The notes under the pieces: generated by a model
The model's database searches: none
What the model saw: only the letters and a program-made list of their open reading frames with translations
What the model was told of the DNA's origin: nothing
Part shown: positions 11,723-11,876 of the stretch, one piece after another
How the letters are laid out: each line of letters opens with the position of its first letter
How positions within the stretch are numbered: the stretch's first letter is position 1
DNA from: a virus
Lineage: Duplodnaviria > Heunggongvirae > Uroviricota > Caudoviricetes
DNA length: 28,548 bases
Virus record (IMG/VR): IMGVR_UViG_2537562092_000003
Strand: one strand, 5' to 3'
Translations under genes and position numbers: made by a program

Positions 11723-11797
11723 TGGAGCGGGTAGCGGGAATCGAACCCGCATCATCAGCTTGGAAGGCTGAGGTAATAGCCATTATACGATACCCGC
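11723..11797 (-). tRNA. tRNA-Gly (anticodon UCC)
   Basis: Reverse complement folds as a 75-nt tRNA with 7-bp acceptor stem GCGGGTA/TACCCGC, anticodon loop CUUCCAA, T-arm GGTTCGATTCC and encoded CCA; close to host glyT as recalled. Confidence 0.9.
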
Positions 11798-11800
11798 ATA

Positions 11801-11876
11801 TGGTGCCGACTACCGGAATCGAACTGGTGACCTACTGATTACAAGTCAGTTGCTCTACCTGCTGAGCTAAGTCGGC
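11801..11876 (-). tRNA. tRNA-Thr (anticodon UGU)
   Basis: Reverse complement is a 76-nt tRNA with anticodon loop CUUGUAA and encoded CCA; close to host thrU as recalled. Confidence 0.9.

Follow-up and report, generated by a model that had tools for sequence, protein, structure and literature searches.

Several lambdoid phages carry transfer RNA (tRNA) genes in the interval that follows the late-gene antiterminator Q. A Thr(UGU) gene is located downstream of Q in SfI, Sf6, ST64T and phage 21 (PMC3636060), and the ileZ-argN-argO genes of 933W-type phages occupy the same slot, which in the Shiga toxin (Stx) 2 phages falls between Q and stx. The tRNAs of the 933W-type phages, SfI and phage 21 have been proposed to read codons that the phage uses often but the host seldom (PMC3636060, PMC7366253), and a Thr plus Gly pair has been described in the Stx2f phage phi467 (PMC7366253). 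Here we analyze such a pair in the virus record IMGVR_UViG_2537562092_000003, a stretch of 28,548 nucleotides (nt) referred to below as the window, in which a tRNA-Thr(UGU) and a tRNA-Gly(UCC) gene lie side by side upstream of the lysis genes of a prophage. Our analysis covers gene integrity, origin, position, distribution, sequence constraint and codon match. We find that the two genes form a known, annotated and widespread prophage element and not a new one, because RefSeq annotates both tRNAs and the literature describes tRNA genes in this slot. The pair probably provides functional extra tRNA copies that boost the decoding of ACA and GGA.

The same fused Thr(UGU)-TAT-Gly(UCC) cassette, in late-gene orientation and just upstream of the holin, is present in phi467 (LN997803), vB_EcoS-683R6, SerU-LTIIb, JLK-2012 and PhiR47_1. 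The phi467 genes match the host genes thrU and glyT at 100% identity and are found downstream of stx2f, ~290 nt from the holin, whereas the pair in the window differs by U16C and by a U6:A67 base pair, directly follows Q and its terminator tR', and is separated from the holin by ~780 nt that include a small RNA (sRNA)-like element. The 933W-type group has other anticodons (CAU, UCU, CCU and GUU, compared with UGU and UCC in the window), and the 933W tRNAs are not known to be near-identical to host genes, whereas the tRNAs of the window are 98-99% identical to thrU and glyT. The two groups occur together in many prophages, where Thr-Gly forms the 3' half of four-gene arrays starting with such tRNAs. 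The tRNAThr6 and tRNAThr21 species, which resist the P2 Old nuclease (PMC12445682), are phage-borne Thr(UGU) tRNAs decoding ACA like the one analyzed here, and that of phage 21 is likewise encoded downstream of Q. In these resistant tRNAs the CNG motif is altered and the anticodon stem shortened, in contrast to the unchanged host arm in the window's Thr gene.

ARAGORN locates exactly two tRNA genes in the window, tRNA-Thr(tgt) at positions 11801-11876 (76 nt) and tRNA-Gly(tcc) at positions 11723-11797 (75 nt). Both lie on the late strand of the phage, here the minus strand, and are read in the order Thr, spacer, Gly, the spacer being the three nucleotides TAT at positions 11798-11800. The genes score 72.2 bits (Thr, E-value 4e-14) and 65.6 bits (Gly, E-value 2e-12) with Rfam model RF00005, compared with a gathering score of 29, and both thus belong to the tRNA family by score; alignment with thrU and glyT assigns the same identities. 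The RefSeq/PGAP annotation of an identical prophage contains both tRNAs, with tRNA-Thr at the same place. With scores far over the Rfam threshold and the CCA end encoded in each gene, the two are intact tRNAs. The identity elements for threonyl-tRNA synthetase are G1:C72, C2:G71, G35 and U36, and those for glycyl-tRNA synthetase are G1:C72, C2:G71, G3:C70, C35, C36 and U73. Read off the K-12 alignment, all of these positions are the same in the prophage genes as in thrU and glyT.

The prophage Thr gene is identical to K-12 thrU in 75 of 76 positions, the sole difference being a U to C exchange at position 16 in the D loop, and its anticodon arm (ACUGA/CUUGUAA/UCAGU) is that of the host gene. 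The Gly gene shares 73 of 75 positions with K-12 glyT and differs only in one compensated acceptor-stem pair, C6:G67 to U6:A67. The sequence source is the host thrU-tyrU-glyT-thrT-tufB operon, with which the cassette has the order Thr(UGU) then Gly(UCC) in common. Unlike the operon, the cassette lacks tyrU, the 116-nt spacer and thrT, and it has an unrelated promoter and flanks: no similarity to the thrU-tyrU-glyT-thrT operon was found for the cassette flanks in the K-12 alignment. All cassette copies examined have this TAT spacer unchanged, and it marks a fusion of thrU to glyT that arose once, with loss of tyrU. Judging by only three matching bases, it could consist of the first base after thrU and the last two before glyT, joined by precise deletion. 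The host supply is single copy, as the median E. coli genome has one matching place, and ThrU is the sole UGU tRNA of MG1655 (PMC12445682). In K-12 MG1655 we found only the chromosomal thrU-glyT match, and its Rac prophage is therefore without the cassette. A native chromosomal thrU-glyT fusion was considered as an alternative source and rejected: the junction scan across 185,579 species representatives returned four enterobacterial species and one Corallococcus contig, a species list that hints at no such lineage, the gene context of those loci not having been inspected.

A first-pass annotation, made from the letters of the window, had placed the pair at exactly the gene ends given by ARAGORN. 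Its anticodons, 3-nt spacing and late-strand orientation agree with ARAGORN and Rfam, and the position it gave, after a tR'-like terminator and before the holin, with the terminator scan and with Pfam. The K-12 alignment likewise confirms the likeness to thrU and glyT without tyrU and the compensatory change in the Gly acceptor stem; the statement that Stx phages have tRNAs at this position holds for the Thr plus Gly pair of phi467 (PMC7366253). The locus as a whole has the layout of the lambdoid post-Q tRNA slot, with Q (12229-12771), terminator (12149-12119), tRNAs (11876-11723) and holin (10943-10728) following one another on the late strand.

To define the distribution of the cassette, we used a 36-nt junction pattern composed of the thrU 3' end, TAT and the glyT 5' end, and scanned the GTDB representatives and IMG/VR. 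The window contains the exact junction of the fused Thr(UGU)-TAT-Gly(UCC) cassette. The pattern is present in 9 GTDB stretches, which come from E. coli (3 copies), S. flexneri (3 copies), E. ruysiae, Citrobacter braakii and a Corallococcus contig; the last, with a length of 423 bp and 0.67x coverage, looks like contamination. It is also present in more than 120 IMG/VR contigs, which is a lower bound, and all cassette counts derived from IMG/VR in this text (125, 129 and 131 copies; 38 variants) are counts among the matches listed. In complete E. coli genomes a 70-nt junction query is covered to at least 80% in 879 of 5426 (about one in six), and a 3-kb segment recurs at ≥99% identity in 51 genomes. 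Phage records with the cassette comprise Stx2f phage phi467, the LT-II phage SerU-LTIIb, JLK-2012, PhiR47_1, the full-length Rac vB_EcoS-683R6 and several vB_Eco records of a UK series. Of the 129 loci among the matches listed (120 from IMG/VR and 9 from GTDB), 55 have the cassette alone; in 36 it makes up the 3' half of a CAU-Lys(UUU)-Thr-Gly array and in 19 that of a CAU-Arg(UCU)-Thr-Gly array. The listed full copies are the same as the host genes in 33 of 125 cases, and the exact allele of the window is seen 3 times. At least two types of Q and several types of holin accompany the cassette.

Some relatives have rearranged or altered the pair. The late region of SerU-LTIIb (positions 1-5597 of our locus L004) contains two tandem modules, Arg-Gly and Thr-Gly, with holin genes after each. 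Between them, upstream of the second cassette, blastn locates a copy of the PR'/tR'-like block that is 80% identical to positions 12241-12113 of the window. This arrangement suggests that, upstream of the LT-IIb toxin genes, the module was duplicated in its entirety from tRNA to holin. The tRNA-Arg(UCU) of the first module (L004 4401-4476, minus strand) corresponds to the SerU Thr gene (C16, C20) with G35C, A31G and G24A, and is still followed by TAT-Gly. Two IMG/VR loci (L128 and L085) have a cassette Thr gene in which UGU is replaced by the Lys-like UUU, together with A26G. By their sequences, these anticodon-switched Thr derivatives look like tRNA remoulding inside the phage cassette.

The cassette is more conserved than its surroundings. 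Compared with Rac relatives, it differs in 2 of 154 positions while the flanks are 5.3-5.5% diverged; compared with SerU-LTIIb, it differs in 4 of 154 positions and the flanks by 9.9%. The cassette is thus 3-4 times less diverged than the flanks (binomial P 0.0004 to 0.011). The 131 listed copies fall into 38 distinct variants, in which 94.2% of all pair cells are standard base pairs; the search pattern fixed part of the cassette, so that these figures describe variation outside the fixed part. The Gly 6:67 pair is U:A in 22 of the variants, C:G in 13, U.G in 3 and never C.A, and Gly 49:65 also switches on both sides, from G:C to A:U. None of 500 shuffles reached the observed covariation score, and sliding the partners by 1-3 columns gave far less pairing and less than half of the covariation score. 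Low divergence and maintained pairing fit purifying selection on the encoded RNAs. Using blastn, we located mosaic breakpoints between related prophages at the cassette ends. MEI4O1 is common with the window from Q to the end of Gly (12281-11722) and diverged thereafter, CREC-591 and phi467 are common with it only between 11881/11890 and 11722, and SerU-LTIIb from the cassette through ~780 nt as far as the holin. The cassette thus acts as a junction between modules as well.

We compared codon usage in 33 prophage coding sequences with that in 42 K-12 genes and ranked the 61 codons by absolute excess. ACA occurs at 20.1 per 1000 codons in the prophage and at 5.4 in K-12 (rank 1 of 61), and GGA at 16.4 and 6.0 per 1000 (rank 4 of 61). 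Both anticodons hence match codons that the phage over-uses. The array partners follow the same trend, with Lys(UUU), the Ile2-type tRNA(CAU) and Arg(UCU) reading AAA (rank 2), ATA (rank 6) and AGA (rank 10, and first by ratio), respectively. The full-length Rac 683R6 and phi467, including stx2f, show the same codon pattern. The comparison of ACA and GGA usage that had been suggested along with the first identification of the pair is thus positive. Two refinements apply to the accompanying idea that the tRNAs could tune translation of late or cargo genes: the codon excess belongs to a general shift to A/T-ending codons, and few such genes are left in this defective prophage.

Signals that could drive or end transcription of the cassette are present on both sides of it. 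A sigma-70 promoter-like candidate site (TTGCGA-16-TATTAT, positions 11940-11967, minus strand) matches the consensus in 9 of 12 positions and lies 64 nt upstream of tRNA-Thr; two unrelated contexts have comparable 9/12 sites, which precede the first tRNA by 10 nt and 67 nt. The number of promoter-like sites is no higher than in shuffled sequence. We found no promoter that travels with the cassette: the sequence common to the different contexts begins just 5-15 nt before Thr and stops at the final base of Gly. A better match, TCGGCA-16-TATAAT (10/12, window 11782-11809, minus strand), spans the Thr/Gly junction and recurs in every cassette copy; it arises from the Thr 3' end and the Gly D arm. 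We rejected it as a promoter, since transcription from this site would begin within Gly; the match is probably incidental to the conservation of the tRNA sequences.

Between the tRNAs and the holin, an STnc100/PasD-like candidate sRNA (positions 11328-11526, minus strand) aligns with Rfam family RF02076 over its full length (1-206). The match at 11526-11328 scores 30.4 bits with an E-value of 6e-5, which is under the gathering score of 47 and leaves the element outside the family by that threshold. The candidate carries the CGGGAGGCACCCG core of the family, has a fold z-score of -3.4, and ends in a strong terminator (11358-11339, followed by T9, minus strand) identified in the terminator scan. 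PasA/C/D and STnc100 sRNAs have been reported in the same prophage slot (bioRxiv 10.64898/2026.05.13.724894), and the candidate may be co-transcribed with the tRNAs. About 30 nt separate this minus-strand hairpin from a second terminator-like hairpin on the plus strand (11284-11307); the two point in opposite directions, away from one another, in the interval from the sRNA-like element to the holin leader. Expression of the lysis genes would require antitermination by Q at two sites, tR' and the minus-strand terminator.

The window is a Rac-type prophage and is defective. Its early-region markers are intR at the right end, xisR, ralR, recET, kilR, sieB and a ydaS/T-type immunity region, and the minus strand also carries DUF1367, YbcO, Q, the lysis genes and trkG. 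The Q protein is of the DUF1133 type (Pfam DUF1133, 357 bits; Phage_antitermQ, 27.4 bits), is encoded on the minus strand upstream of the tRNAs and is labelled antitermination protein Q in the annotation of phage vB_EcoS-683R6. The tR'-like intrinsic terminator (12109-12149), found by the terminator scan on the same strand 80 nt past the Q stop codon, has a 13-bp stem followed by a T-run. Downstream of the tRNAs, the minus-strand lysis cassette (9770-10943) encodes a P21-type holin (Pfam Phage_holin_2_1; essD in RefSeq), a lysozyme (10231-10728; Pfam Phage_lysozyme, rrrD in RefSeq) and Rz (9770-10234; Pfam Phage_lysis). Pfam gave no match for the two open reading frames between tRNAs and holin, at 11466-11660 (minus strand) and 11501-11734 (plus strand). 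In the full-length Rac vB_EcoS-683R6, which is integrated beside ttcA, terminase, portal, coat and tail genes follow trkG/ynaK; the window-type prophage has only remnants there, corresponding to a deletion of ~20 kb. The RalA antitoxin sRNA is found opposite ralR (26814-26992, minus strand; Rfam, 225 bits, full length) and forms the type I toxin-antitoxin pair of Rac. The nin-like region at ~14500-16150 of the window (L001 18029-19647) contains a queH (epoxyqueuosine reductase) homolog and a DUF1971/TehB-like gene, and a tRNA-modification gene therefore shares the prophage with the tRNA cassette. An attB-type origin is assumed in the Pas sRNA preprint (bioRxiv 10.64898/2026.05.13.724894) for tRNA hits near prophage sRNAs. 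We rejected the reading of the two genes as attB-type integration remnants: both are complete and internal between Q and the holin, and the cassette is also found in packaged or induced phage genomes.

We rate it as somewhat better than even that the pair works as a set of functional extra tRNA copies for ACA and GGA. In this model, the two are elongator tRNAs of host origin in a fused thrU-glyT cassette that circulates among lambdoid prophages, where it takes up the variable slot from Q/tR' to the holin. Late-strand transcription would occur by read-through of Q-antiterminated PR', or from a weak promoter of the cassette's own with a stop at the sRNA terminator, and the transcript would then be processed by host RNase P and 3' exonucleases. 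The cassette adds a second gene copy of the sole E. coli tRNAs reading ACA and GGA, and would thereby help to decode the two codons whose use by A/T-rich phage genes most exceeds what the host supplies. We infer transcription, processing, charging and any fitness effect of the cassette, which may be expressed by Q-dependent read-through, from a local promoter or by both. Several points weigh against this model. The strong terminator tR' lies upstream of the tRNAs and the candidate promoter matches only 9 of 12 consensus positions. Recent capture, or gene conversion with thrU and glyT, could also yield low divergence, and about a quarter of the listed copies (the 33 of 125 given above) are host-identical. 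The codon enrichment is part of a general A/T-ending shift and not specific to ACA and GGA (G+C content at third codon positions is 0.445 compared with 0.57), and by ratio AGA, AGG and ATA are more enriched than either. The contrast with the K-12 sample is overstated, since ACA and GGA reach 12-14 per 1000 in weakly expressed host genes adjacent to Rac. The morphogenesis genes are lost from the window prophage and the three lysis genes hold only 6 ACA and 3 GGA codons; the prophage being defective, few late or cargo genes are left to benefit. Finally, lambdoid phages with and without tRNA genes were equally codon-adapted in a published comparison (PMC4631060).

An alternative that we regard as unlikely, yet deserving of weight, is that the cassette is a lysogenic-conversion moron, an autonomous promoter-terminator unit with an sRNA-like element that is expressed in the lysogen and aids host translation of A/T-rich acquired genes. 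Such a benefit to the host would explain retention in a dead prophage: the tRNAs are intact despite the ~20-kb morphogenesis deletion, the 3-kb segment recurs at ≥99% identity in 51 genomes and the cassette itself reaches 879 of 5426. The unit is bracketed by tR' and the strong terminator at 11358-11339, promoter-like sites occur just upstream of the first tRNA in three unrelated contexts, and prophage sRNAs of the STnc100/Pas families use the same slot. Those promoter matches, however, reach 9/12 in a number no higher than in shuffled sequence, no conserved promoter moves with the cassette, whose shared sequence begins only 5-15 nt upstream of Thr, and retention in a defective prophage could just mean recent decay. 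The cassette could instead be a passive passenger, a captured piece of host DNA whose tRNA function is not selected for in the phage and that persists as a homology patch for late-module exchange, a reading to which we assign a rather low probability. Mosaic breakpoints coincide with the cassette ends in MEI4O1, CREC-591, phi467 and SerU-LTIIb, different Q and holin types accompany it, a share of the listed copies is identical to the host genes, and tRNAs of this kind have been suggested to mark captured regions (PMC7366253). Compensated stem changes and the 3-4 times lower divergence than in the flanks, on the other hand, argue for selection on the RNAs, and trimming to mature tRNA ends with precise removal of tyrU is unlike random capture. 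The codon match is good, and a linker role and tRNA function are not mutually exclusive.

The least probable of the explanations, in our estimate, is that the prophage Thr(UGU), possibly together with Gly(UCC), stands in for host tRNAs that tRNA-targeting defense nucleases such as P2 Old destroy. P2-lambda interference is the work of this nuclease, which kills lambda-infected cells: it cleaves the tRNA-ThrU of the host behind C28 and C40, favors ThrU at a paired C28-N-G30/C40-N-G42 motif and thereby excises the anticodon arm (PMC12445682). Phage Thr(UGU) tRNAs rescue cells only by being resistant, and resistance takes the altered CNG motif and the shortened anticodon stem together (PMC12445682). 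Phage 21, a lambda relative with a tRNA downstream of Q, is among the rescuing phages (PMC12445682), and the lysis cassette of the window is of the P21 type. Both glyT and the prophage Gly gene carry a paired C28-A-G30/C40-U-G42 motif and A37, and 5 of 131 listed copies have G42 changed to C or U together with U43 to C, which leaves a 3-bp stem and a broken 3' CNG and resembles the published resistance changes. The Thr gene of the window, in contrast, has the UGU anticodon with an arm (ACUGA/UCAGU) of 5 pairs and CNG intact on both strands, host-identical as in 122 of the 131; its substitutions and those of Gly are confined to the D loop and acceptor stem. Over-expressed host ThrU gives little or no protection, and no Gly target is reported (PMC12445682). 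The CNG motif is probably common among tRNAs.

We therefore rejected the window's Thr as a diverged, nuclease-escaping tRNA, as its anticodon arm equals that of thrU and host ThrU does not protect (PMC12445682). It is predicted to be sensitive to P2 Old, because the host arm is unchanged. The variant arms read UCACC in IMG/VR loci L130, L028 and L043 and UCAUC in L023 and L045, and from their sequences the five G42C/U plus U43C variants look like candidate P2 Old escape alleles. A speculative combination, which we consider improbable, would make the cassette a counter-defense as well as a codon-supply module and the substrate on which escape alleles evolve, with the window copy as the ancestral sensitive state that buffers depletion by dosage alone and is maybe co-transcribed with the STnc100-like sRNA. 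Both tRNAs are single-gene essential isoacceptors and have the paired C28-N-G30/C40-N-G42 motif with A37 that P2 Old cuts. On this reading the candidates for escape would be the G42C/U plus U43C variants and the derivatives with switched anticodons, Arg(UCU) and Lys(UUU).

The correct identification of a common, annotated cassette matters little alone. The locus does, however, illustrate cleanly the capture and trimming of host tRNA genes in lambdoid phages, which took the form of a precise fusion of thrU and glyT, and it exemplifies structural constraint on the copies and a carried tRNA set that tracks the codons over-used by the phage. The destruction of tRNA-ThrU by P2 Old makes the allelic state of prophage Thr(UGU) genes informative. 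Together, the predicted-sensitive copy of the window and its few escape-like relatives form a cheap, testable panel for tRNA counter-defense in temperate coliphages.

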